DNA of 64,000 nucleotides from Vicinamibacteria bacterium (GCA_963668695.2 CAXXLQ010000001.1:69807-133806), one strand, 5' to 3'. Counted from the first letter of the stretch, positions 4,013 through 63,896 are shown. The notes: generated by a model from the sequence alone, not told the origin. Translations and numbers: made by a program.

Positions 4013-4323
4013 AGGGCGCCGCGAAACCGCGCGTCGCCGGTGGAGAGAAAGCGCGGGGACGGCCGGGAACGCCGGTCTTCAGACCGGCACAGCGGCCCCG
4101 AGGGCCGCGGCGGTGAGGAAGCCAACCGTTGAAGTGGTTCCCGTCTCGGCACGTACCCCCAACAGTTAAGACGACCTGGCAAGACGGCCTGGCAGGCACG
4201 GGAGCCCCCACCGGGAGGACTGGGCCGACCTCCGGCCGGTTCTCCCGGTGCTCACGCCACTTTGTCCACAGGCCGCTGACGCGGATCCCGGCGTAGAGTT
4301 CCGCGACCTTCCGATTTCCCGTC

Positions 4324-16519: not shown

Positions 16520-16795
16520 ATGACCAAGGTGGAACTCGTAACGACATTGTCAGAGTTTGCTGGAATCAGTCGTCGCGAAACCGCCGCGGTTCTCGACGGA
16601 CTGCGTGACCTGGCGATTGAGGAACTCAAGGCTGGCAACGGCTTCATGCTTCCGGGAATCGCCAAGTTTTCGGTTGCGCACCGGGAAGCGAGAATGGGCC
16701 GCAACGTCCGCACGGGGGAAGCCATTGAGATCCCGGCGCGGAATGTGGTGAAATGTAAAGTTTCACGCCCCTTCCAATCCGACTCCTGCGACTAG
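16520..16795 (+). CDS. HU-family nucleoid-associated DNA-binding protein
   Basis: Track ORF 16415..16795, trimmed to ATG 16520. MTKVELVTTLSEFAGISRRETAAVLDGL...GRNVRTGEAIEIPARNVVKCKVS is the HU/IHF fold signature. Its stop TAG (16793-16795) lies inside the CTAG end of the adjacent repeat element. Confidence 0.85.
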   Translation: MTKVELVTTLSEFAGISRRETAAVLDGLRDLAIEELKAGNGFMLPGIAKFSVAHREARMGRNVRTGEAIEIPARNVVKCKVSRPFQSDSCD

Positions 16796-16977
16796 CAGCC
16801 CGTAGACAAAGTCGCGCGGCGTTCGACCGGCGATGCATCCCGGCTGAACCGCGCCGCTACGCGTCGCTCATCGTTGCGCTTGGTCGAAATACACTCGGTA
16901 TTCCTCCCTCGCGCGCCTTGTCAGCCGGGCGCCTCACCGCTCTCGGCGCTCGTGCCACTTTATCCACGAGCTGCTAG
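16792..16977. mobile_element. MITE-like repeat element, family A (short copy)
   Basis: Ends are ctagcagcccgtagacaaagt... and ...actttatccacgagctgctag. Interior has cgctcatcgttgcgcttggtcgaaatacactcggtattcctccctcgcgcgccttgtcagccggg. Confidence 0.65.
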
Positions 16978-19630: not shown

Positions 19631-20305
19631 CAGCCCATGGAAGAAGCACCCCGGATGGCCGCCGCCGCGCGAGACGCGCGAAATCTACGGATTTCTCCGA
19701 ATGCGGAGCGCTTTTCCCTCGGGCGAGCAGCCTGTGGACAAAGTCACGCGGCATTCCCGAGCCAAGAGGGATGGGAGCCGGGTATCCCCGTCCCCCATCC
19801 CTCTCGCTCCGGGGTCTCCGCGGTGCTGGCGCCCCGCTCCGGAAGCCCGAGCCAGAAGGGATGGGGGTCGGGTGGCCCCGCCCCCCGTCCCTTCCGCTCC
19901 GGGGTCTCCGCGGTGCTTGCGCCCCGCTCCGGAAGCCCGAGCCAGAAGGGATGGGGGTCGGGTGGCCCCGCCCCCCGTCCCTTCCGCTCCGGGGTCTCCG
20001 CGGTGCTGGCGCCCCGCTCCGGAAGCCCGAGCCAGAAGGGATGGGGGTCGGGTGGCCCCGCCCCCCGTCCCTTCCGCTCCGGGGTCTCCGCGGTGCTGGC
20101 GCCCCGCTCCGGAAGCGAGCGGCGATGCACCCCGACTGGCCCCCACCGGGAGAACTGGCCGCCCCGCTTCGCGTGGCTCATCGTTGCGCTTCGGTCGAAA
20201 TACACTCGGGCCAGTTCTCCCGGTGGGGGCTCCTCCCTCGCGCGCCTTGTCAGCCGGGCGCCTCACCACTCTCGGTGCTCACGTCACTTTGTTTACAGGC
20301 TGCCT
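19627..20305. repeat. Composite family A repeat insert between pyrK and pyrD
   Basis: Starts ctagcagcccatgg, with a second end-like gagcagcctgtggacaaagtcacgcgg near 19723. Contains the 90-bp array and then the A body (cgtggctcatcgttgcgcttcggtcgaaatacactcgggccagttctcccggtggggg...ccttgtcagccggg). Ends cactttgtttacaggctgcc. Confidence 0.75.
19759..20116. repeat. Tandem array, ~4 x 90 bp (module B)
   Basis: atgggggtcg recurs at 19861, 19951 and 20041 (period 90). The units are near-identical over their whole length, so there are no unique spacers. The first unit is diverged and the last is truncated. Confidence 0.9.
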
Positions 20306-33598: not shown

Positions 33599-33858
33599 TG
33601 AACAGCCCGTGAATGAAGTCAAGTGGCCCGGTTCTCCCGGTGGGGGCTCGGCCGGCGATGCATCCCGGCTGAACCGCCCCCCCACCGGGAGAACTGGCGC
33701 TTCGCGTCGCTCATCGTTGCGCTTCAGTCGAAATACGCTGGGTATTCCTCCTTCGCGCGCCCTGTCAGCCGGGCCCCCACCGGGAGGACTGGCCCCACCG
33801 GGAGAACTGGGCCTCCCCGGTCTCGGCCCTCACATCACTCCATCCACGGGCTGTTGAG
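33599..33858. mobile_element. MITE-like repeat element, family A variant (CAGCCCGTG...CACGGGCTG ends)
   Basis: Ends are gaacagcccgtgaatgaagtcaagtgg and ccatccacgggctgttgag. Internal A modules are present. It ends at the nucleotide before the first possible icmF start codon. Confidence 0.65.
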
Positions 33859-52240: not shown

Positions 52241-53383
52241 TCATCCCAGGGCTTGGTCCAGATCGGCGATCAGATCGGCCGGATGCTCCAATCCGACGGA
52301 CACCCGAATGAGATCGCGGGGGGTCTTGGTGTCCGGTCCCTCGACGAGCGCGCGGTGCTCTACCAGGCTTTCGACGCCGCCCAGGCTCGTTGCCCGCGTG
52401 AAGAGTTTGATGCGCGAGAGCACGCCCTTCGCGTGATCCTCTCCTCCGAGGGCCCGGAAGGAGAGCATGGCGCCGTAACCGTCTCCCTGGCGGGTCTGGA
52501 CTGCGTGTCCGGGATCCGAAGCGAGCCCCGGATAGAAAGTCGCCGCCACGCGGGGATGGCCGCTCAGGAACTCCGCGAGCTTTCCCGCCGTCTCCGACTG
52601 GGCCCGGATCCGGACGGGCAGGGTTCTCATCCCTCGGCGGAGCAGCCAGGCGTCGAACGGAGATGGCACCGGGCCGGTCTCGGTTTGCACGAAACGCAGC
52701 CGTGAGGCGAGTTCGAGACCTTCCCGCAGCACGACCGCTCCGCCGGTTACGTCGCTGTGCCCGCCGAAGTACTTCGTGGTGGCGTGGATCACGATGTCCG
52801 CGCCGAGAGCCAGTGGCCGCTGAAGAACCGGTGTCATCCAGGTGTTGTCCACGGCGACCAGCGCTCCCACGGCGCGGCAGCGGGCGGCGACGGCCGCGAT
52901 GTCGGTGATTCGCAGGGTGGGGTTCGAGGGGGTCTCCAGGATGGCGAGCGCGGGCCGTTCGTCAAGGCCGGCGGTTACGTCCTCCGGGTCCAGGAAATCG
53001 GTGAAGCGGGTCCGGAGCCCCCAGCGAGCGAGAGACTCCTTCGCGAGGCGCACGGTCCCGTGATAGGCGTCCTGCGGCGCCAGGACGAGATCTCCGGGCG
53101 AGAGGGTCAGGAGAAGCGAATGAACGGCGGCGAGTCCCGAGGCAAAGCTCACGCACTCCGCGCCTCCCTCCAGGTCGGCGACCGCCTGCTCGAGCGCCGT
53201 CCGATCCGGATTGCCGCTGCGTCCGTAGATGAAGTCCGAAGCGAGGTTCCCCTCGGGATCTCGCCGGAACGTGGTCGAGAGGTGGATCGGCGGCGCCACG
53301 GCCCCCGCCAGGTTCTCGGAGGAGCCGGCGTGCACGCTCCGGGTCTCGATCCGGTAATTCTTCTTGTCGTCCATGCGGCGCAT
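52241..53383 (-). CDS. Cys/Met-metabolism PLP-dependent enzyme (cystathionine gamma-synthase/lyase family)
   Basis: Track ORF 52241..53734, trimmed to ATG 53383 (alternative 53374); upstream is repeat translation. Has YGRSGNPDRTALE, VDNTWMTP and HATTKYFGGHSD (PLP Lys). Confidence 0.85.
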   Translation of the reverse strand: MRRMDDKKNYRIETRSVHAGSSENLAGAVAPPIHLSTTFRRDPEGNLASDFIYGRSGNPDRTALEQAVADLEGGAECVSFASGLAAVHSLLLTLSPGDLVLAPQDAYHGTVRLAKESLARWGLRTRFTDFLDPEDVTAGLDERPALAILETPSNPTLRITDIAAVAARCRAVGALVAVDNTWMTPVLQRPLALGADIVIHATTKYFGGHSDVTGGAVVLREGLELASRLRFVQTETGPVPSPFDAWLLRRGMRTLPVRIRAQSETAGKLAEFLSGHPRVAATFYPGLASDPGHAVQTRQGDGYGAMLSFRALGGEDHAKGVLSRIKLFTRATSLGGVESLVEHRALVEGPDTKTPRDLIRVSVGLEHPADLIADLDQALG

Positions 53384-53420: not shown

Positions 53421-53644
53421 ACTAGCAGCCTGTGGATAAAGTGGCGTGAGCGCCGAGAGTGGCGAGGCGCCCGGCTGACAAGGCGCGCGAGGGAGGAGCC
53501 CCCACCGGGAGAACTGGCCCGAGTGTATTTCGACCGAAGCGCAACGATGAGCGAGGCGAAGCGCCAGTTCTCCCGGTGGGGGGGCGGTTCAGCCGGGATG
53601 GATCGCCGGTCGAACGCCGCGTGACTTTGTTCACAGGCTGCTAG
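53421..53644. mobile_element. MITE-like repeat element, family A, complete copy
   Basis: Ends are ctagcagcctgtggataaagtgg and gactttgttcacaggctgctag, with internal A modules. It sits between the divergent PLP-enzyme and ECF sigma genes. Confidence 0.7.
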
Positions 53645-53658
53645 GCTGCCGCCCACTG

Positions 53659-54303
53659 TTGCGCGACGCGAACAAACGGGCAGGTCCAGTGCGTCTTTCT
53701 TCCGAGGAGTCGAAGGATGCGCCGGTTGATCCACTTCGGGAGGAACGAGCCCTGGAGGATGCAGAGGAGCGCCGCCTGTTTCAAAGGTTTCGGGAGGCGG
53801 GAGACCTGTCCGCCTTCGACGAACTCGTTCGCCGCACCGAGAGTCGAGTTCGTTCGGTGGCCCTCGCCATCCTCCGGGATCGGGCCGAGGCCGAAGACGC
53901 GGCCCAGGAGGCCTTTCTCCGGGCCTTCAGGCGCGCTTCCAGCTATCGGGGAGAGGGGCCGGTGGGCGCCTGGCTGTGCCGGATCGCGGTCCGTTCGGCC
54001 CACGACGCGCTCCGGCGGGCCGGCAGGCAGCGGCGACTCATCGAAGTGGCGAAGCAGCCCGGAGATGTGCAGGCGGAAGCCGGAAGCGTTGATCCGGAGG
54101 AAGAACTGCACCGCCGCACGGAGGTGGAGTCAGCGCTTCGGACGCTGCCCGCAGACGAGCGCGAGGCGCTGGTGCTGAAGGAAGTAGCAGGAATGACCTA
54201 CCGGGAAATCTCCGAGTCGTGCGGCGTTCCGCTCGGGACCGTACAGTCCCGGATTCATCGGGCGCGCCAGCGCCTGGCCGACGCCCTTCGTCCGAGGGCT
54301 TGA
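53659..54303 (+). CDS. ECF-type RNA polymerase sigma factor (sigma-70 family group IV)
   Basis: Region 2 is FDELVRRTESRVRSVALAILRDRAEAEDAAQEAFLRAF. Region 4 is EREALVLKEVAGMTYREISESCGVPLGTVQSRIHRARQRL. Start is TTG 53659 or GTG 53689, uncertain. Confidence 0.85.
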   Translation: MRDANKRAGPVRLSSEESKDAPVDPLREERALEDAEERRLFQRFREAGDLSAFDELVRRTESRVRSVALAILRDRAEAEDAAQEAFLRAFRRASSYRGEGPVGAWLCRIAVRSAHDALRRAGRQRRLIEVAKQPGDVQAEAGSVDPEEELHRRTEVESALRTLPADEREALVLKEVAGMTYREISESCGVPLGTVQSRIHRARQRLADALRPRA

Positions 54304-54347
54304 ACCGAGGGCTTGATCCGAGGGGTTGAACCGCGGAGCCGAACGAA

Positions 54348-54893
54348 ATGACCGATCAAGAAGTTCTCTCGGCGTATCTGGACGGCGAGCTCCCGCCGGC
54401 CGTGGCCCGGCGAGTCGAGGAGCGCCTCGACACCGATCCGGGGCTCCGCCCGGGGCTCAGGCAGGAGTACCACCGTCTCCAGCAGGTTTCCGCAGTCCTC
54501 CAGGTCCGCTGCGAGGCCGATCCCGGATTCCTCGTTCGGCATCGTCAGCGGCGTGATGATCTGTCACCGATCCGGCAATGGACCTGGAGGCAGTTGGGAT
54601 ACCGGCTGACCGGGGTGGCCGCCGGAATGTTGATTGCCGCCGGTCTCAGCGTCTGGCAGGCCGAATGGCAGGCAGTGGACACGCCCGCGAACGCCACTGC
54701 GGAAGCCGAGGAGCTGGATTTGCTCGACTTCGAGGGCCAGATCCTGGCCGCGCCGGATTTCGGATCTCCGGATTTCGGATCCCCGGATTTCGAATCCCCG
54801 GTTTTCGAATCCCTGGCCATGGAAGGCCCGACTGACGAGCCGGTACTCCTGATTGTGCTTGGGGCCGGTTTTTCGCCGTCCGGGGAACGCTGA
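54348..54893 (+). CDS. Anti-sigma factor (single-pass membrane)
   Basis: N-terminus MTDQEVLSAYLDGELPPAVARRVEERL is typical of ECF anti-sigma factors. One TM segment (LTGVAAGMLIAAGLSVW). The periplasmic tail carries PDFGS PDFGS PDFES PVFES repeats. Confidence 0.8.
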   Translation: MTDQEVLSAYLDGELPPAVARRVEERLDTDPGLRPGLRQEYHRLQQVSAVLQVRCEADPGFLVRHRQRRDDLSPIRQWTWRQLGYRLTGVAAGMLIAAGLSVWQAEWQAVDTPANATAEAEELDLLDFEGQILAAPDFGSPDFGSPDFESPVFESLAMEGPTDEPVLLIVLGAGFSPSGER

Positions 54894-55456
54894 TGCCCGA
54901 AGCGAACCTGACCCCGCCGTCCGAGTCGGCGAACCGACGCTGGAAGCGGTTGATGCCGCTGCTCCTGGTGCTTGTCGGCTTCGGCGCCGGAGTGCTGGCG
55001 AGCCACCTCGCGCCGTCCGTCAGAAGGCATCGGGGCGCGGGCGGCGAGCATCGCATGGGCCATTTGAACGACTCCGACTCCCGGTCGGGGCGGCGCGCCG
55101 GCGAGGGGGCCGAACGAGGCCGTTCCCGCAGCCGCGAGGCTCGGGAAGGCGAGGAGCGAAGTCGCCGGTTCCGCGAACAACTCGCCCGCCGCCTCGGTCT
55201 CGACGAGGACCAACAGGCGCGGATGGAAGCCTTCATCGAGTTGAACCGCGCCGAAGCCAGTGAATTTTGGGATGACACCTACGCTCGCTACCGCGAACTG
55301 CGGCTGCGGTTCCGCGAGCAGATCCGCGAGATCCTCAATGAGTCGCAGCGTCAGACCTTCGACGCCTGGATGCGCGAGAGAGGACGAAACGACGGGTCCC
55401 CCGATTCCGTAGAGGATTCCGCGGAAGGGGCGACCCCCGGAGGGAGAGCACGATGA
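54893..55456 (+). CDS. Periplasmic Spy/CpxP/ZraP-like (LTXXQ-type) protein
   Basis: 187 aa. N-terminal TM/signal anchor, basic linker, then helical LGLDEDQQARMEAFIE and ILNESQRQTFDAWM (LxxxQ motifs). Its ATG overlaps the anti-sigma stop. Confidence 0.65.
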   Translation: MPEANLTPPSESANRRWKRLMPLLLVLVGFGAGVLASHLAPSVRRHRGAGGEHRMGHLNDSDSRSGRRAGEGAERGRSRSREAREGEERSRRFREQLARRLGLDEDQQARMEAFIELNRAEASEFWDDTYARYRELRLRFREQIREILNESQRQTFDAWMRERGRNDGSPDSVEDSAEGATPGGRAR

Positions 55457-55487
55457 CGGGAGAGAGCACGATGACGGGAGAAAGAAG

Positions 55488-58400
55488 ATGAGCGCGCCGG
55501 ACCAGCACCGACACTCACACAGTCAGGAAGAGGTCAAGGAACGCGGCAACGCGCTGGCGCGCTTCGCCGTGGATCGCCGGGTCACGATCAGCATGATCGC
55601 CGTGGGGCTGATCGTGCTCGGATACGTCTCGCTCACCCGGCTCCCCCTCGAATTCCTCCCCTCGTTCGGGGCCAACAGCCTCTGGGTGAGTGTCGATTAC
55701 GAGTCCTCCTCCCCCGAGGAAACGGAGCGGCTGGTGGTTCGGCCGCTTGAGGAGAGTCTCGGGACCATCCCGGGCATCACCGTCCTCACCGCCACCGCGA
55801 ACGCCAACAGCGGCAACGTGAGTATCGAGTTCAACGAAGCGGCGGACATGGATCTGATGGTCGTGGAGGCCCGCGACCGGGTGGACCGGGTCCGTCATCT
55901 CCTTCCCGACGACATCGAACGCATCAACATCCGGCGCTTCCAGAGCAGCGACATCCCCATCCTCCAGTTCCACCTGGGGGCTCCCTGGGAACGGGAACGC
56001 CTCTTCGACTTCGCCGAAGACTTCGTGCAGCCCCGGCTCGAGCGCCTTGAAGGCGTGGCCAGCGTGGACGTACGGGGCGTCCGCCGACGGGAATTGCGGG
56101 TGAGCATGGATCAGCGGCGGATGGCGGCGCTGAACGTGGATGTCCGGGATATTTCGACGGTTCTGTCCCAGAACAACGTCAATGTTTCCGGCGGCACCAT
56201 CATCGACGGATCCCGAAAGTTCATCGTCAGGACGGTCGGAGAGTTCCGCCGCCCGGAGGAGATCCGCGAAACCCCGATCGGCGATAGCGGACTGCGGCTG
56301 AGCGACGTCGCCGACGTCACCTATGAGTTCCCCACCCAGACTTCGTTCGACTATCTGAACGGCGAAGAAGCGGTCACCTTCCGCGTCTACAAGGCGTCCA
56401 ACGCCAACGTGCTCGATGTCGCCGACGGCGTCAAGGCGGAGATGGCGGAGATCGCGTCGATATCCCGGTACGAGGATATCGACGTCCGGTACATCCATGA
56501 CTCTTCGGTCGACGTTCGCGGGGGGCTGTCGCAGCTCGCCCTTGCCGGGCTCTTTGGCGGAGGGCTCGCCATCCTCATCCTGCTCCTGTTCCTGCAGAAG
56601 GTCCGGACCACCCTGCTGGTCGCGGTGGCGATCCCGCTCTCGATCATCACCACGTTCGTGATCATGTACCTGGGCCGGCAGACGGGCCTCGTCGACACCA
56701 CCCTGAACGTGATCAGCCTCTTCGGGTTGATGGTGGCCGTCGGCATGCTCGCCGATCCCGCGATCGTGGTCATCGACTCGATCTCGCGCCACTTCACCGA
56801 ATACCAGGAAGACTCCCGCACGGCGGCGATCCGCGGCGTCTCCGCCGTGACCATGCCGATCGTCGCCGGTGCGGCGACCACCATGTGCGTGTTCCTTCCG
56901 CTCGTTTTCCTCGGGGCGACGATGGGGGGCTTCTTCCGCATCTTCACCGACTTCGGGTTCACCCTGAGCGTGGTGATCGTGGCTTCCCTGCTCGTGGCGC
57001 TCACGGTCGTGCCCATGATGGCGGGCGTTGTCCTCCGCAACGAGCGGCGTGTCTATTCCCGGACGATGCGCCTCCTCGGCCGTCTCCACGGAAGGATCGT
57101 CCGGCGCACGCTCCAGCATCGGTTCGTTTCGCTCGGCGTCGCGATCGGTCTGTTGGGACTGGCCTGGATCCTCTACCAGAACACCGAGCGGTCCAGCTTC
57201 AGTTCGACGGTGGAACGACAGGTGACCGTCAACGTGGATGTGCCCCGGGCCTACTCGATTGACGAAACCCGCGAGGTGATGGAGTCGGTAGCGGCGCTTA
57301 TCGAAGAGCGGCGCGATGAACTCGAGATCACCGACGTGGTTTACGAGTTCCGCCGCGGCGGCGGACGGTCGCGGGGCGGCTACGGCGGCGGCGGCCGTCG
57401 GTTCGAGCTCTACCTGGTGGATGAAATGGAGTCCGAGCGGAGCGTCCAGGAGATCACGGACGAGATCCGGGAGATGCTCCCGACGGTCGCCGGGGTTGAC
57501 TTCCGGATCGCCGAGAGCCGGGGGCACGGTCCCGGTGGGGGCAGCGGAATCCGGCTGGACCTGAAGGGCGACGACATGGACGTGCTCGAACTGATTTCGG
57601 GCCGCGTGGTTGAACGGCTCGCGTCGCTTCCCTGGATCCGGGATGTGGACACTTCGCTCGAGAGCGGAACCGAAGAGCTCCATATCACCCCGCACGCGGA
57701 ACGGGCGCTCGCTTCCGGTTCCGGGACCAATGCGGTGGCCCAGACCGTTCGCAGTGCATTGACTTCGCGACCGGTGGGGACCATCGAGAGCGACCAACGG
57801 GAAGTGGACATCGTGGTTCAGTTCCCCGAGGAACAGCGCGAGCGGCTTGATCACCTCCGCAGCATGCCGGTCTTCGTGGCCGGCGCCCGGGTGCCCGTGG
57901 GGGCGATGGCCGACTTCGAGGTGGTGAGCGGGCCGCGCAGCATCGAGCGCGAAGATCGCCGTCCCAAGCTGACCATCAGCGCCAACACCACGGTTCCGGG
58001 AGCTTCTTTCCGGCTCATGGGGCAGGTGCGGGAACAGCTCGCCGACATCGCGCTACCGCCGGGTTACGAGTGGAGCTTCGACCGGTGGAGCCGCATGGGC
58101 CAGGCGGATTTCTCCGCCGCGGGGTTCGCCTTCGCCTTCGCACTTCTCCTGATCTACCTGATCATGGTGGCGCTTTTCGAGAGCTTCCTCCATCCGGCGG
58201 TGATCATGTTCTCGATCCCGTTCTCTTTCATCGGAGTGGCGGTAACGCTCAAGCTCACCGGACAGACGCTCGGCAACACCGCGATGCTGGGTCTGGTACT
58301 GCTCGCCGGGATCGTCGTGAACAACGCCATCGTGTTGATCGCGCACGTCAACACCCTCCGCCGCGAGGGCATGTCCCGGGACGAGGCGCTCGTTCTTGGG

Positions 58401-58721
58401 AGCGAGCACCGGCTACGGCCGGTCATGATGACCGCCCTGACTACCTTCTGCGGCCTGATGCCGCTCGCGGCGCCCTACTTCCTGCCGGGGCTCTTCGGGT
58501 CGGTGGATGGGCGCGCCGGACAATGGGCGCCGATCGGCCTCGTGCTGGCCGGAGGACTGCCTGCCTCCACCCTGCTCACCCTGCTTCTCGTTCCCACGAT
58601 CTATGCCGTGACCGACGACCTCAAGCGGCTGGTCTGGCCCTACACCACCGCCCCGGAGGTCCGTGCGGCGATTGAGCCCGCAGCGACCGGTGCGCCGGCT
58701 CTGAACCCAGTCACGCAGTGA
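55488..58721 (+). CDS. RND-family efflux transporter permease, copy 1
   Basis: 1077 aa with the 12-TM/2-loop RND layout. Has FAVDRRVTISM and the conserved TM4-region GMLADPAIVVIDS, plus a C-terminal half repeat. Confidence 0.9.
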   Translation: MSAPDQHRHSHSQEEVKERGNALARFAVDRRVTISMIAVGLIVLGYVSLTRLPLEFLPSFGANSLWVSVDYESSSPEETERLVVRPLEESLGTIPGITVLTATANANSGNVSIEFNEAADMDLMVVEARDRVDRVRHLLPDDIERINIRRFQSSDIPILQFHLGAPWERERLFDFAEDFVQPRLERLEGVASVDVRGVRRRELRVSMDQRRMAALNVDVRDISTVLSQNNVNVSGGTIIDGSRKFIVRTVGEFRRPEEIRETPIGDSGLRLSDVADVTYEFPTQTSFDYLNGEEAVTFRVYKASNANVLDVADGVKAEMAEIASISRYEDIDVRYIHDSSVDVRGGLSQLALAGLFGGGLAILILLLFLQKVRTTLLVAVAIPLSIITTFVIMYLGRQTGLVDTTLNVISLFGLMVAVGMLADPAIVVIDSISRHFTEYQEDSRTAAIRGVSAVTMPIVAGAATTMCVFLPLVFLGATMGGFFRIFTDFGFTLSVVIVASLLVALTVVPMMAGVVLRNERRVYSRTMRLLGRLHGRIVRRTLQHRFVSLGVAIGLLGLAWILYQNTERSSFSSTVERQVTVNVDVPRAYSIDETREVMESVAALIEERRDELEITDVVYEFRRGGGRSRGGYGGGGRRFELYLVDEMESERSVQEITDEIREMLPTVAGVDFRIAESRGHGPGGGSGIRLDLKGDDMDVLELISGRVVERLASLPWIRDVDTSLESGTEELHITPHAERALASGSGTNAVAQTVRSALTSRPVGTIESDQREVDIVVQFPEEQRERLDHLRSMPVFVAGARVPVGAMADFEVVSGPRSIEREDRRPKLTISANTTVPGASFRLMGQVREQLADIALPPGYEWSFDRWSRMGQADFSAAGFAFAFALLLIYLIMVALFESFLHPAVIMFSIPFSFIGVAVTLKLTGQTLGNTAMLGLVLLAGIVVNNAIVLIAHVNTLRREGMSRDEALVLGSEHRLRPVMMTALTTFCGLMPLAAPYFLPGLFGSVDGRAGQWAPIGLVLAGGLPASTLLTLLLVPTIYAVTDDLKRLVWPYTTAPEVRAAIEPAATGAPALNPVTQ

Positions 58722-60703
58722 GGGAATTCGTGCCCCAGACAAAGACAACGACACGCTCGCCGCGGGGCTGGAAAATCCCCGGACGAAAGCTTCTCCAGGC
58801 GCTGATCCTGGTCGGTTTGGCCGGCGCCTTGGCGTGCGGATCCTCCGAAGAGGAAGGGGCTGCTCCGGGCCGTTCCGGCGGGGGCGGCGGCGGCAGGCCG
58901 GGAGGTGGTCCACCGGGCGGATTCGGCGGGGGAGAGAGTGCGGGCACGGAAGTACCCGTCGAAGTCGTCGAAATCCTGCCCGGCGAGATCTCGGCGTTCA
59001 TCGAGACGAACGGCACCCTGGAAGCGGAGCGCGAGGTGGACATCGTGGCCCGCGCCGGCGGCCCGCTGGTGGCTCTCAATACCGAAGAGGGAATGCAGGT
59101 GAAGGCGGGCGAGTTGCTTGCCCAGATTGATGAAGCTGAGGCGCGCGCGCAGGTGGAGATCGCCAAGGTAGCGCTGCAGGACGCGGAACTTGTCCACAAC
59201 CGGGCGAAGGCGTCGCTCGAGAATGCGGTCGTGAGCCAGGAGGTGTACGACAGCGCGCGCTCTGGTCTGGAATCGGCGCGGGCGCAGTTGGTCGGAAACG
59301 AGATCCAGCTGAGTTATACCCAAATCGCGGCGCCCTTCGACGGGCTGATCATCCAGCGCGCCGTGAAGTTTGGGGAAACAGTGGCGGTGGGGCAGCAACT
59401 CTTCCGCATCTCCGACTTCGATCCACTCCTCTGCACCATCGGAGTGCCCGAGCGGGACCTGACCCGGCTCTCGATCGGCCAGCCGGCGATTCTGGAAGTG
59501 GAAGCTTTTCCGGGCGAGCTGTTCCGGGGCCGGGTGCTGCGAATCAGCCCGGTGGTGGACTCCGCGACCGGGACGATCCGGGTGACCCTGGAAGTGGACC
59601 GGCGCGGACGGCTCAGCCCCGGGATGTTCGCCGGAGTGCGGCTCGTGACCGACGTGCGCCAGAACGCGCTGATCATGCCCAAACGCGCCCTCTCCCTGGA
59701 GAGCCTCGCCGACTCGGTCTTCGTCGTGGAGGACGGGGTTGCCTACCGCCGCAACGTGACCCTCGGCTATGAAGAGGATGATCGGGTTGAGGTGACCGCC
59801 GGGCTCAGCGCGAACGACCGGGTGATCGTGGTCGGCCAGGACGGTTTGACCGATGCCACCCCGGTTCAGATCCTCGTCGGCCCGGGGGCGGAGGAGCCCA
59901 GGAGCCGCACGGCGGACGCCGGGAGCCCGCCGGGTGGATCCGGAATGTCCGAGGAGCGTCGCGCTGCGATGCGCGAGCGGATGCGTGAGCGCGGTATGAC
60001 CGACGAGCAAATCGACACCCGGCTCGCGGCCATGGAAACGGGCGGAGGCCCTCCGGGGGGAGGCGTCCCGTCGCGTGGTGCCCAATCGCGTGGCGGAGGG
60101 GCGCCTACCGCTTCCCCGGCCGAAGAGCGGCCGGCAGCGGACCAAACCCCGGCGGACCAAACGTCCCGGGAAGCTCCCGCAACACCGCCGGGTTCGACCA
60201 CCCCGGACCGAGCCCCGAGGGCAACTCCCGCTCCGGCAGACAGCGAGGAGCCCTCGGCACCGGCGGCGCCCGCTCCGGCGGCCGCGCCGGTGACTGCGGC
60301 GGAACCGCCAGGATCGCCAGGACCGCCGGGATCGCCAGGATCGGGCGCGGCGTCCACCTCACCGCGGCGGACGGGTCGTGCTGCCGGTTCACGGGCCGGG
60401 CGCGCCGGGACCGCGACGGCCGCCGGGCCGGGAGAAGGCACTGCACCGGATTCCTTCGAGAGCCTCCCGCCCGAAACGCAGGAAGCGATTCGCGCTCGCC
60501 TGCGTTCCATGGGCTTGACCGACGAACAGATCGAGGAGCGGGTCCGCCGCGGTTGGGGGTTGCCCTCAGCTGAGGGAGCGTCCCGGGACGCGGAACCAAC
60601 ACCCGAGCAGCTTGAAGCTTTGCGCGAACAACTCCGTAGCCGGGGAATGACGGAAGAACAGATCGAGGAGATCATCGCCCGGCGCCGCCGTCCGCCGCGT
60701 TAG
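58718..60703 (+). CDS. RND efflux periplasmic adaptor (MFP) with Gly-rich N-linker and ~270-aa low-complexity C-terminal tail
   Basis: Lipoprotein-like LAGALACGSS. The MFP core has QIDEAEARAQVE, YTQIAAPFDGLI and RISPVVDSATGTIRV. The Pro/Ala/Gly-rich tail carries three RGMT(D/E)EQI(D/E)-type motifs. Its GTG overlaps the RND1 stop. Confidence 0.85.
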   Translation: MREFVPQTKTTTRSPRGWKIPGRKLLQALILVGLAGALACGSSEEEGAAPGRSGGGGGGRPGGGPPGGFGGGESAGTEVPVEVVEILPGEISAFIETNGTLEAEREVDIVARAGGPLVALNTEEGMQVKAGELLAQIDEAEARAQVEIAKVALQDAELVHNRAKASLENAVVSQEVYDSARSGLESARAQLVGNEIQLSYTQIAAPFDGLIIQRAVKFGETVAVGQQLFRISDFDPLLCTIGVPERDLTRLSIGQPAILEVEAFPGELFRGRVLRISPVVDSATGTIRVTLEVDRRGRLSPGMFAGVRLVTDVRQNALIMPKRALSLESLADSVFVVEDGVAYRRNVTLGYEEDDRVEVTAGLSANDRVIVVGQDGLTDATPVQILVGPGAEEPRSRTADAGSPPGGSGMSEERRAAMRERMRERGMTDEQIDTRLAAMETGGGPPGGGVPSRGAQSRGGGAPTASPAEERPAADQTPADQTSREAPATPPGSTTPDRAPRATPAPADSEEPSAPAAPAPAAAPVTAAEPPGSPGPPGSPGSGAASTSPRRTGRAAGSRAGRAGTATAAGPGEGTAPDSFESLPPETQEAIRARLRSMGLTDEQIEERVRRGWGLPSAEGASRDAEPTPEQLEALREQLRSRGMTEEQIEEIIARRRRPPR

Positions 60704-60737
60704 CCCAGCCGCACCTCCTCACGGACAGCCCCGACCG

Positions 60738-63700
60738 ATGCGCATCGTCGACTTTTCCATCCGGCGGCCCGTCACCGTCGTGGTGCTGTTCATCGCCATC
60801 GTGGTGTTCGGGGTGGTCGGTTTCGACCGCCTGTCCGTGGATCTGCTGCCGGACATTACCTACCCGTCGCTGAACGTCCGCACCGAGTACGAGGGCGCCG
60901 CGCCCAGCGAGATCGAAAACCTGATCACCAGGCCCATCGAAAACGCGGTCGGGGTGGTCAACAACGTGAATCGGGTCGTTTCTTCCTCCCGGCCCGACGT
61001 CAGCGAAGTCACTTTGGAGTTCGGTTGGGGAACGGACATGGACATGGCCGCGCTGGACGTGCGCGAACGGCTCGACGTGGTGCGGCTCCCGCTTGACGCG
61101 CCGCGACCGACGCTCCTGCGTTTCGATCCTTCGCTGGACCCGATCCTCCGCTTCGGGCTGACCGGAAGCGAGGACCTCGTCCGACTCAGGCTCATTGCGG
61201 AACAGGAGATCCAGCGCAACCTCGAGCGCGTCGAAGGGGTGGCGGCGGTGCTCGTCAGCGGCGGCCTGGAAGAGGAAATCCACGTCGAAATCGACGAGCG
61301 GAAGGTGGCGAGCCTCGGGCTCTCGATTCCCGCAGTGGTGAACCGGCTCGCTCAGGAGAATGTCAACCTGACCGCCGGGCGCCTGCTCGACGGTGGAACC
61401 GAGTACCTGGTCCGAACGATCAACGAATTCGAGCGTCCCGAGGACATGCGGGACATCGTGGTGGATGCCGAGCGCACCGTGATCCGGCTCGACGACATAG
61501 CCACCATTAGCCGGGGCGCCAAGGAACGGGAGGTCATCACCCGCATCGACGGCCTCGAATCGATCGAGATCGCCGTGTACAAGGAGGGGGGGACGAACAC
61601 CGTCACCGTGGCGGACGACGTCATGGCCCGCGTCGAAGAACTTCAGGAGCGCCTGGGCCGGGTGGGCGAGGATCTCGCGCTGACCCTGGTCACCGACCAG
61701 GCGCGCTACATCCGCCAGTCGGTGTCCGAGGTGCTCCAGACCGCGGTGTTCGGGGGCATTCTCGCGATCCTGGTACTGATCCTCTTCCTCGGGGAACTGC
61801 GGTCTACTGCGATCATCGGGATCTCCATTCCGATTTCGGTCATCGGAACCTTCTTCCTGATGTATGTGTCGGGCGTCTCGCTCAACATCATGTCGCTCGG
61901 CGGCATCACCCTGGGCATCGGGCTGCTGGTGGACAACTCGATCGTGGTGCTCGAAGCGATCAAGCGGAAACGGCATGAGGGACTTGGTCTCGTCGAGGCT
62001 TCCCGGGCCGGAACCGGCGAGGTCGGACAGGCGGTGATCGCCAGCACGATGACGACGGTCTGCGTTTTCGTGCCGATCGTGTTCGTCGAGGGGATCGCGG
62101 GGCAGTTGTTCGGAGACCAGGCGCTCACGGTGACCTTCTCGCTCGCGGTTTCGCTGCTCGTCGCGCTCACGCTGATCCCGATGCTCGCCTCGCGCGAATT
62201 CCGTCCGGCCCCCGCGACGGAAGCCGCGATTTTCAGGACCGCGGCCGGCCGCCTTTTCGGGCGGGTCGTTTCAGCGGTGAGCCGGGGTGTGATGTGGGTC
62301 GTCTTCGGGATCTTCAAGGGTGTCGATCTCGTCATCAAGGGGATCCTCTGGCTGCCGAGCCGGCTCTTCCAGTTGGCGTACAACGGCGTCGTCCGCGCCT
62401 ATCCGCCGGTTCTGAACGGGGCCCTCAATCATCCGTTCCGGGTGGGAACCCCTGCCATCGTGCTCTTCGCCGGGGCGCTCTACGTGGTCCCTTCGCTCGG
62501 GACGGAACTCGTGCCCGAGTTGGTCCAGGGAGAGTTCTTCGTGGACACCGAGCTTCCCGCCGGCACCCACCTGGATCTCAATTCCCGGCGCCTTATGCAT
62601 CTTGAGCAAGCGGCCCGTGAGATCCCCGGAGTACGCACGGTCTACGCAACGGTGGGGACCAGCAGCCAGCAGGGCGGGGCAGCCGGAGAACTCCGGGAGA
62701 ACATCGGCCAGATTACCGTGGTGCTGGATCCTCCGGTGGACCGCGACCGGGAAGAGGCGGCGATTGCGGAGCTCCGCCCGCAGCTCGAGGCAGACCCGGA
62801 TTTGCTCTACATCTTCGGGCGGCCGTCCTACTTCAGCTTCCGAACCCCGGTGGAACTCGAGATCCGCGGCTTCAACCTCACTCAGCTGGAACGGACCGCC
62901 GACGAGGCGGTCGCCGGCCTCCGGCAGATTCCGGGGCTCGTGGACGTCAAGTCGTCCACCGAGGGTGGGAACCCCGAACTACAGATCCGGTTCCACCGCG
63001 ACCGGGTGGCGTCGCTTGGATACAACGTGAACCAGCTCGGCAACCTCATCCGCACCAAGGTGCTTGGCGATGTAGCCACCGACATCCAGCGGGACGACCG
63101 TTCCATCGACATCCGTCTCCGCAGCGACGAATCCTTCCGCGACAGCATTGAGGATCTGCGGAATCTGAACATCTCCGACGATGCCGCCGCCACGATCCCG
63201 CTTTCGAGCGTGGCCGATGTGGACGAAGTGATCGGCCCCGCGGAAATCCGCCGCGCCGACGGCGAGCGGGTGGCCACGATCACCGCGAACATCCTCGGGC
63301 GGGATCTCGGAAGCGTGGCCACCGACATCGAGGCCCTGATGGCGGGCATTGGGATGCCCGCCAGCTTCAGTTGGCGGCTCGGCGGCCAGCAGGAGGAGAT
63401 GGAGACCTCCTTTGCGAGCATGCAGTTCGCGATCCTGCTCGCGGTGTTCATGGTCTACCTGGTGATGGCCTCGCAGTTCGAGTCGCTGCTCCATCCGTTC
63501 GTGATCCTTTTCTCCGTTCCGTTTTCCCTCGTCGGGGTGATCTTCGCCCTCAAGCTGTTCTCGGTGACGGTGAGTGTGGTGGTGCTGATCGGGGTCATCA
63601 TGCTGGCGGGCATCGTGGTGAACAACGCCATCCTGCTGCTCGACACCACCAACCGCCTCCGTCGCGGCGGCATGGCGAAGTTGGACGCGCTGCGGGAGGC

Positions 63701-63896
63701 GGGGAAGGTCCGACTCCGACCGATCCTGATGACCACCTCGACCACCGTCCTGGGTCTTCTTCCCATGGCTATCGGCCTCGGGGAGGGCAGCGAGCTGCGG
63801 ACTCCGATGGCGATCGCGGTGATCGGCGGCCTGGTCCTTTCCACCGCTCTGACCCTGCTCGTTATCCCGGCCGTCTATCGCGTCATCGGAAGGTAG
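60738..63896 (+). CDS. RND-family efflux transporter permease, copy 2
   Basis: 1052 aa. MRIVDFSIRRPVTVVVLFIAIVVFG and GLLVDNSIVVLEA. It is a divergent paralog of copy 1 (clearly alignable but mostly non-identical by eye). Confidence 0.9.
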   Translation: MRIVDFSIRRPVTVVVLFIAIVVFGVVGFDRLSVDLLPDITYPSLNVRTEYEGAAPSEIENLITRPIENAVGVVNNVNRVVSSSRPDVSEVTLEFGWGTDMDMAALDVRERLDVVRLPLDAPRPTLLRFDPSLDPILRFGLTGSEDLVRLRLIAEQEIQRNLERVEGVAAVLVSGGLEEEIHVEIDERKVASLGLSIPAVVNRLAQENVNLTAGRLLDGGTEYLVRTINEFERPEDMRDIVVDAERTVIRLDDIATISRGAKEREVITRIDGLESIEIAVYKEGGTNTVTVADDVMARVEELQERLGRVGEDLALTLVTDQARYIRQSVSEVLQTAVFGGILAILVLILFLGELRSTAIIGISIPISVIGTFFLMYVSGVSLNIMSLGGITLGIGLLVDNSIVVLEAIKRKRHEGLGLVEASRAGTGEVGQAVIASTMTTVCVFVPIVFVEGIAGQLFGDQALTVTFSLAVSLLVALTLIPMLASREFRPAPATEAAIFRTAAGRLFGRVVSAVSRGVMWVVFGIFKGVDLVIKGILWLPSRLFQLAYNGVVRAYPPVLNGALNHPFRVGTPAIVLFAGALYVVPSLGTELVPELVQGEFFVDTELPAGTHLDLNSRRLMHLEQAAREIPGVRTVYATVGTSSQQGGAAGELRENIGQITVVLDPPVDRDREEAAIAELRPQLEADPDLLYIFGRPSYFSFRTPVELEIRGFNLTQLERTADEAVAGLRQIPGLVDVKSSTEGGNPELQIRFHRDRVASLGYNVNQLGNLIRTKVLGDVATDIQRDDRSIDIRLRSDESFRDSIEDLRNLNISDDAAATIPLSSVADVDEVIGPAEIRRADGERVATITANILGRDLGSVATDIEALMAGIGMPASFSWRLGGQQEEMETSFASMQFAILLAVFMVYLVMASQFESLLHPFVILFSVPFSLVGVIFALKLFSVTVSVVVLIGVIMLAGIVVNNAILLLDTTNRLRRGGMAKLDALREAGKVRLRPILMTTSTTVLGLLPMAIGLGEGSELRTPMAIAVIGGLVLSTALTLLVIPAVYRVIGR

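Follow-up and report, generated by a model that had tools for sequence, protein, structure and literature searches.

The window analysed here, a 64,000-nucleotide stretch of DNA from a Vicinamibacteria bacterium (GCA_963668695.2, CAXXLQ010000001.1:69807-133806), carries six + strand genes at 53659-63896 that read as a single efflux operon. In our preferred explanation, to which as a whole we give a probability of roughly 0.6, an extracytoplasmic function (ECF) sigma circuit shares an operon with a resistance-nodulation-division (RND) pump of the hydrophobe/amphiphile efflux (HAE) type, whose two paralogous permeases, RND1 and RND2, likely assemble as a heterotrimer on one adaptor. This view is carried by the joint inheritance of the two permease genes across phyla and by RNA-derived contigs that run through the whole gene cluster.

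The genes and their parts are as follows.

53659-54303, + strand: ECF sigma factor (sigma-2 and sigma-4 domains), start codon TTG 53659 or GTG 53689
53670-53695, + strand: ECF-type promoter-like motif, GAACAA-N16-CGTC
54348-54893, + strand: single-pass anti-sigma factor (N-terminal anti-sigma domain, one transmembrane (TM) helix, acidic periplasmic tail)
54753-54812, + strand: in-frame tandem repeat, 4 x 15 bp, in the periplasmic tail of the anti-sigma factor
54893-55456, + strand: Spy/CpxP/ZraP-family (LTXXQ) protein, predicted membrane-anchored and periplasmic
55488-58721, + strand: RND permease 1 (RND1), ACR_tran, the faster-evolving paralog
58718-60703, + strand: adaptor (membrane fusion protein, MFP), whole gene, RND_mfp TIGR01730
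58718-59902, + strand: adaptor core, with lipoprotein-type signal and Gly-rich linker
59903-60703, + strand: adaptor C-terminal tail, a Pro/Ala/Gly-rich linker and three copies of a helical module
60738-63896, + strand: RND permease 2 (RND2), ACR_tran, the slower-evolving paralog

All six open reading frames (ORFs) and their junctions read as a sequence-only reading of this DNA had placed them, and the labels it gave the genes agree with Pfam and NCBIfam searches, two small proteins scoring near the cut-offs. Two of its details needed revision. The coordinates stood but the start of the sigma gene is not fixed between the two codons listed, and the adaptor, correctly named, is 661 aa long, about 266 aa of these forming a C-terminal tail past the canonical core. 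By direct reading, the anti-sigma and LTXXQ genes overlap at TGATG and the RND1 and adaptor genes by 4 nt at GTGA. The remaining gaps are 44 nt (sigma/anti-sigma), 31 nt (LTXXQ/RND1) and 34 nt (adaptor/RND2), and 104 nt separate the end of RND2 from the end of the window.

The closest named relatives are metagenome-assembled genomes (MAGs) of Ca. Marinacidobacterium (Acidobacteriota, Vicinamibacteria), and the DNA and RNA runs that hold this stretch are sponge metagenomes and metatranscriptomes. For the sequence downstream of the window we used the ENA contig L001 (2.05 Mb), which matches the window at 99.6% identity along the common stretch and encodes an identical RND2. The two differ by a 6-bp in-frame indel inside the adaptor gene (window 58718-60703, L001 7987-9966).

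The two permease genes are inherited as a pair

The order permease-adaptor-permease with two divergent paralogs, noted earlier from the sequence, was read directly in the window, where RND1 and RND2 are 31-34% identical. We retrieved 79 loci with an alignment of RND1 orthologues from contigs of one genome per species and read their gene orders by tblastn with the six window proteins. RND1-type and RND2-type genes occurred together in 70 of the 79 loci, and every untruncated locus among these had one adaptor gene; five of the other nine were cut by contig ends. Among about 72 informative loci, only two lacked the partner gene, these being lone RND1-type genes (L056, L075). In a reciprocal check, all four loci picked through RND2 homologues had the arrangement ACR_tran-MFP-ACR_tran. 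Taken together, the 70 and the four loci show two permeases with one adaptor, as had been proposed, and not an adaptor for each permease. The pump genes stood in four different orders, and many loci from outside Acidobacteriota had a 4-nt overlap between the permease genes.

RND1-adaptor-RND2: all untruncated Vicinamibacteria, Thermoanaerobaculia and Holophagae loci, and most other Acidobacteriota loci
Adaptor-RND2-RND1: Latescibacterota, Gemmatimonadota, Opitutales and two unclassified Acidobacteriota loci (L068, L079)
RND2-RND1-adaptor: Spirochaetia
Adaptor-RND1-RND2: one Cytophagia MAG

A maximum likelihood tree of 70 proteins placed the RND1-type sequences (34 rows) and the RND2-type sequences (31 rows) in two clades, each with an SH-aLRT support of 100 and the two being sisters at 98. 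Each clade holds Acidobacteriota, Gemmatimonadota, Latescibacterota, Verrucomicrobiota, Spirochaetota and Bacteroidota. The E. coli proteins MdtB and MdtC were sisters at 100 and grouped with AcrB. Since this places the Mdt pair outside the RND1 and RND2 clades, the phylogeny argues that the RND1/RND2 pair arose by a duplication independent of that of MdtB and MdtC. Scores against the NCBIfam equivalogs of MdtB/MdtC were 334/375 for RND1 and 417/453 for RND2, against cut-offs of 1584/1774, and place both window proteins outside those orthologue groups. Across 31 loci, the pairwise-identity matrices of RND1 and RND2 correlated with r = 0.94, a value reached in 0 of 2000 permutations. At the gene level, all features of the heteromeric pump class are thus present, namely two different permease genes that share an operon with one adaptor gene and are inherited as a pair.

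One Thermoanaerobaculia genome has extra RND1-type genes: a tandem duplication with the sigma trio upstream (L045, 6816-17885), and a third, adaptorless copy beside Nramp and ion-channel genes (L056, 9977-13108).

Both permeases look functional and of the HAE type

Both proteins belong to the RND superfamily, matching ACR_tran (PF00873, cut-off 28) with 683 bits over residues 24-1041 in RND1 and 837.5 bits over residues 3-1050 in RND2. Residues equivalent to AcrB D407, N941, R971 and T978 are invariant in both clades, which have N, P or S at AcrB position 408 and Asn at 940. A search for a degenerate subunit revealed no lost relay residues and no domain-specific decay in either permease; RND1 is about 20% less conserved than RND2, evenly over all domains. 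On these sequences neither permease looks like a dead subunit, and both look functional. The RND1 clade has a conserved insertion between TM11 and TM12 (...PLAAPYFLPGLFGSVDGRAGQWAP..., residues ~992-1016, window ~58460-58540) that is absent from the RND2 clade, AcrB, MdtB, MdtC and CusA.

The earlier reading had asked whether the pump belongs to the HAE or the heavy-metal efflux (HME) class, with TM4 as the place to look. TM4 reads GMLADPAIVVID in RND1 and GLLVDNSIVVLE in RND2, and the HME signatures sought were absent from both permeases: there was no DFG-DGA-VEN, no CusA Met573/623/672 triad (the positions are N/G/E in RND1 and D/I/R in RND2) and no E939/K984 relay (939 is Asn, 984 is Val or Ile). 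Scores against the CusA/CzcA model TIGR00914 were 305 and 480 bits, below its cut-off of 701, and for both permeases the best NCBIfam model was the multidrug-type RND_permease_2 (NF033617), which scored above TIGR00914. By these signatures, the pump is of the HAE type and not of the HME type.

The six genes are transcribed as one unit

RNA evidence came from contigs of four sponge metatranscriptome runs (X8 and X25-X27), which are strandless and of approximate depth. The X8 contigs covered 53699-55385 (sigma, anti-sigma and LTXXQ), 55385-58273 (LTXXQ into RND1), 58246-58745 (RND1/adaptor), 58738-59689 and 60550-61220 (adaptor/RND2), with further pieces up to 63913. One X25 contig spanned 54836-55894 and one X27 contig 58236-60022, so that the three runs together bridged all five gene junctions. 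RNA depth along the operon was about 8, dropping to about 3-5. Over the divergent upstream gene (52800-53173) it was 0, 0, 0.6 and 0 in the four runs, which argues against DNA carry-over. Because RNA contigs bridge every junction, the six genes are co-transcribed as a single unit, and they are expressed in sponge symbionts in situ.

A consensus scan for sigma-70 promoters and intrinsic terminators gave nothing above chance, and the 31-nt gap between LTXXQ and RND1 has no promoter-like or terminator-like site. The bridged junctions and the single ECF-type motif in the cluster agree with the claim of one operon; separate transcription units were not seen.

The sigma factor, its start codon and the upstream motif

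The sigma factor matched Pfam Sigma70_r2 (61 bits) and Sigma70_r4_2 (68 bits), and its score of 109.2 bits for NCBIfam TIGR02937 (sigma70-ECF, cut-off 42.9) places it among the ECF (group 4 sigma-70) factors. A promoter motif search, which the sequence-only reading had suggested for the regions upstream of 53659 and 55488, yielded one candidate, the motif at 53670-53695, and none before RND1; it is the sole copy in the cluster. Sixteen of the 23 loci examined have the motif RAAC(A/T)A-N14-17-CGTC(C/T), of the kind usual for ECF promoters, upstream of sigma. Its distance is constant, 121 to 200 nt before sigma codon 47, and it is kept even with sigma orthologues of 40% identity and where in-frame stops separate it from the start codon.

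In the lineage of the window, the motif lies across codons 4-13 of the ORF beginning at TTG 53659, and no canonical in-frame start codon was found downstream of it. TTG or GTG occupies the position equivalent to 53659 in the eight closest relatives and is the only start codon conserved there. The 5' ends of RNA contigs lie at 53685 (X26) and 53699 (X8), inside or just after the motif; the transcription unit therefore begins close to 53685-53699. Just past the motif there is also a strong Shine-Dalgarno sequence (GAGGAG, 53704-53719 region) with ATG 53717 seven nucleotides on; this ATG is shifted to the +1 frame with respect to the sigma ORF. L010 has its counterpart in frame, and L012 and L003 are without any in-frame start downstream of the motif.

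The anti-sigma factor and the LTXXQ protein

The anti-sigma factor scored 22.4 bits for Pfam zf-HC2, a borderline match to the 22.2-bit cut-off, and had weak anti-sigmaE hits in NCBIfam. Its N-terminal segment contains neither HxxxCxxC nor any Cys or His in that region, placing it outside the zinc-binding anti-sigma (ZAS) type. The motif is retained in the orthologues of L015 (HVDGCAGC) and L020 (HVDSCDGC), and by this comparison it has been lost in the window protein. The repeat in the periplasmic tail consists of PDFGS-like units, four in the window, and closely related strains differ in their number: one unit is missing from L013, and 15 nt at 54753 are missing from the X8 RNA contig. In L001 (around 4040-4100), a 20-nt deletion shifts the frame of the anti-sigma C-terminus.

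Iterated profiles and direct reading located the sigma/anti-sigma/LTXXQ trio directly upstream of the pump, on the same strand, in about 35 of the 79 loci, and the anti-sigma gene likewise stands at +1 after sigma in about 35. These include the Gemmatimonadota/Latescibacterota-type loci L057-L064, with the pump order adaptor-RND2-RND1; six further loci keep the LTXXQ gene alone. The coupling to envelope stress proposed earlier from the gene order is in line with this conservation, which persists even where the pump genes are ordered differently.

The small periplasmic protein scored 21.9 bits for Pfam LTXXQ (PF07813). Alignment of 36 orthologues showed only L103, Q107, L148 and Q152 to be invariant, and these make up two LxxxQ motifs; 28 of the 36 matched LTXXQ (best E 9e-15) and 20 matched Metal_resist. 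A profile of the family retrieved Spy (E 1e-7) and CpxP (E 1e-4) from the PDB sequences, and AlphaFold gave confident helices over residues ~74-168. By these profile matches, the protein is a member of the Spy/CpxP/ZraP (LTXXQ) family.

The adaptor and the outer-membrane channel

The adaptor is a clear MFP, with 248.3 bits for TIGR01730 (RND_mfp, cut-off 94.9) over residues 81-385 and model positions 1-321 of 322, and 106 bits for HlyD_D23. Its N-terminus reads ...LAGALAC followed by GSSEEE, and its core ends near residue 395. The tail carries three copies of ...PEQLExLRxxLRxRGMT(D/E)EQIE.... In nearly all Acidobacteriota loci, a single copy with the consensus TPEQLExxKxRMRxRGMSEEQIE, placed after a Gly/Pro-rich linker, ends the adaptor; the window lineage has the module in triplicate. 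Adaptors from outside Acidobacteriota have a different conserved C-terminal helical module. The tail motifs resemble LTXXQ in appearance only; a profile comparison with that family was not significant (hhalign probability 10%, E = 0.003), and the Pfam matches of the tail to cwf21 and HlyD_D4 look compositional. One 46-kb metagenome contig encodes a predicted protein of 1681 aa (P0037), 75% identical to RND1, that also carries MFP domains, either as a genuine RND1-adaptor fusion or through a frameshift at the 4-nt overlap.

A profile iterated from E. coli CusC found no outer-membrane factor (OMF) gene among the ORFs of the 64-kb window, as had been stated for it. The earlier suggestion of looking for a TolC-like gene downstream was not borne out, as no OEP-family gene lies within the 10 kb after RND2 on L001; genes for an AbiEi-like antitoxin and an AbiEii nucleotidyltransferase toxin (L001 13339-14783; type IV toxin-antitoxin/abortive infection) are found there instead. 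Nor did about 55 Acidobacteriota loci have an OMF gene within 10 kb. An OEP gene adjoins the pump in the relatives L074 (212 bits), L072 and L069, and these neighbours suggest that the pump family works as a tripartite system. Judged by gene content, the channel in Acidobacteriota must be supplied from elsewhere in the genome.

Proposed mechanism and alternatives

In the proposed mechanism, the single-pass anti-sigma factor would hold the ECF sigma factor until envelope or chemical stress frees it, and the freed sigma would drive its own operon, pump genes included. The periplasmic LTXXQ protein could assist the anti-sigma factor in sensing, as CpxP does for CpxA, or be a chaperone co-produced with the pump. 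RND1 and RND2 would most likely join in a single heterotrimer of the inner membrane, like MdtB2C of E. coli, with one lipoprotein adaptor to serve them, and the outer-membrane channel would be encoded elsewhere in the genome. We infer the control of the operon by its own sigma factor, the formation and stoichiometry of the heterotrimer, and what the LTXXQ protein and the adaptor tail do. Given the co-inheritance, an RND1/RND2 heterotrimer is the most parsimonious reading, and we lean towards it by a small degree. A bolder version, which we put slightly below an even chance, has an obligate heterotrimer that evolved independently of MdtB2C and spread over six phyla, an ECF/Spy-like wiring convergent with Bae, and an adaptor tail that contacts the LTXXQ protein or a permease.

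Several observations weigh against this explanation. Co-inheritance would also be expected if two needed homotrimers shared one adaptor, and a strict 1:1 pair is not universal, as lone RND1-type genes (L056, L075) and the order RND1-RND1-adaptor-RND2 (L045) occur. The tree came from a quick search with five outgroup sequences and a long-branch warning for AcrB with MdtB/MdtC. The trio is missing from about half of the loci, so its coupling to the pump is frequent and not obligatory. The window LTXXQ protein is below the Pfam cut-off (21.9 vs 24.3 bits), and Foldseek of its AlphaFold model gave no PDB match, so it is sequence profiles that support the family assignment. The candidate promoter motif overlaps the only conserved sigma start codon in the window lineage. 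The contig ends at 53685 and 53699 are at odds with transcription starting downstream of the CGTC element, which makes the motif doubtful as a promoter in those samples; it is probably not the one used there. Finally, the RNA contigs are strandless and may contain DNA.

It is possible, if rather unlikely, that RND1 and RND2 each form homotrimers that alternate on the single adaptor and so provide two substrate ranges from one operon. Each permease could be competent, since the relay residues are kept and purifying selection acts in every domain of both, and the lone and duplicated RND1-type genes just mentioned point the same way. Adaptor sharing between homotrimeric RND pumps is established, as AcrA serves both AcrB and AcrD. 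Independent pumps predict frequent partner loss, however, whereas it was seen in 2 of about 72 informative loci. The 1:1 pairing persists over at least six phyla and four gene orders, start/stop overlaps of the permease genes are frequent and their divergence is correlated, which is the pattern of MdtBC, a pair known to be heteromeric. We therefore keep the heterotrimer as the preferred reading.

The two remaining alternatives concern what the pump exports and whether the trio belongs to it. In a heavy-metal system, the LTXXQ/Metal_resist protein would sense periplasmic metal, as ZraP or CnrX does, and the pump would export cations. The Metal_resist matches in 20 of the 36 orthologues and the partial TIGR00914 hits in both permeases favour this, as do the contexts of ECF281 and ECF290, which Casas-Pastor et al. 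(2021) linked to heavy-metal stress (PMC7826278). It is nonetheless improbable, because TM4 follows G(M/L)L(V/A)D(N/P)(A/S)IVV and not DFG-DGA-VEN, the positions of the CusA Met triad and of E939/K984 are unconserved in both clades, TIGR00914 scores below both its own cut-off and the multidrug model, and the name Metal_resist rests on annotation only. We consider it highly improbable that the trio and the pump are separately regulated neighbours. The absence of the trio from about half of the related loci and the lack of strand information in the RNA data would allow it, but the LTXXQ/RND1 junction was crossed in two runs (X8, 55385-58273; X25, 54836-55894), its 31-nt gap shows no promoter-like or terminator-like site, and the trio precedes the pump across lineages that differ in pump gene order.

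Relation to known systems

MdtBC is a B2C heterotrimer, and MdtB2C, MuxBC and SmeJK, which go back to one duplication within Proteobacteria, are the only heteromeric RND pumps described (PMC7015380). In a 2024 survey of 6205 RND proteins, tandem permease genes were restricted to the MdtBC clade (PMC10872679). Like MdtABC of E. coli, MuxABC-OpmB of P. aeruginosa and SmeIJK of S. maltophilia, the system described here has two paralogous permease genes and one adaptor gene per operon, old co-inherited paralog clades, an OMF often encoded elsewhere and, as proposed, control by envelope stress; the adaptor-RND2-RND1 order of its non-acidobacterial relatives mirrors mdtA-mdtB-mdtC. It differs from MdtBC in divergence, since MdtB and MdtC are 50% identical to each other and 24-28% identical to RND1/RND2, whereas RND1 and RND2 share 31-34%. 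Moreover, TM4 of RND1/RND2 has a single Asp (D-N/P, not D-D) and TM10 has Asn for Lys940. Unlike in MdtABC, the adaptor gene lies between the permease genes in Acidobacteriota, and an ECF sigma factor takes the place of the BaeSR two-component system.

The core Bae regulon of E. coli comprises spy, mdtA and acrD (PMC3160322). As in that regulon (spy, mdtABCD, acrD), a Spy-family LTXXQ protein and a two-permease RND pump would here answer to one envelope-stress system, but in the window a single operon contains these parts, an ECF sigma/anti-sigma pair is the regulator and the LTXXQ protein is membrane-anchored. This likeness is best taken as a functional analogy, not as demonstrated common descent. 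The window protein shares with CpxP, Spy and ZraP two LxxxQ motifs and a helical make-up; it differs in its N-terminal membrane anchor, its long charged linker and its degenerate motifs (LDEDQ, LNESQ).

In the context described for ECF281, a zinc-finger anti-sigma factor stands at +1 and a PF13801 'heavy-metal resistance' (LTXXQ) protein at +2 (PMC7826278). The window resembles this group, which derives from the original group ECF20, by gene context alone (anti-sigma at +1, LTXXQ at +2), and departs from it in that its anti-sigma factor is without HxxxCxxC. An efflux operon beside the sigma gene is described for ECF291 (CnrH) and unmentioned for ECF281 (PMC7826278). Our literature search for a described LTXXQ/ECF/RND operon found none.

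If the heterotrimer reading is true, heteromeric RND pumps arose at least twice. A second independent and widely conserved permease pair would be a natural replicate for studying why certain RND pumps require two different subunits and which of their interfaces and functions are split between the two. To our knowledge, almost no regulatory circuits have been characterised in Acidobacteriota, and the conserved coupling of an ECF sigma factor with a Spy/CpxP-like protein would offer a testable model of envelope-stress-controlled efflux in this phylum. The adaptor tail module would then be a new, family-specific element.

Neighbouring sequence and minor features

Beyond the AbiEi/AbiEii genes, L001 carries a pyridine-nucleotide-disulphide oxidoreductase gene and a small IS110-like transposase fragment (16539-16865). 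Within the operon, short tandem duplications run across two stop codons, at 54292-54335 and 55446-55483. Three CCGAGGGCTTGA-like units occur at the sigma stop and in the spacer after it, and two copies of GAGAGCACGATGACGGGAGA at the LTXXQ stop; it appears that both stop-codon regions were copied into the spacers between the genes.

Between the sigma gene and a divergent gene of Cys/Met metabolism lies an element of about 220 bp (53430-53650) with a long perfect hairpin (RNA fold -60.8 kcal/mol, 53480-53600); the site is empty in the relatives L012, L013 and L004. The element is one of a dispersed repeat family, of which the window has at least 10 copies, whole or partial (20116-20298, 16792-16967 and 33648-33777 among them). 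Its depth in the RNA contigs was 170-460, compared with about 8 for the operon.

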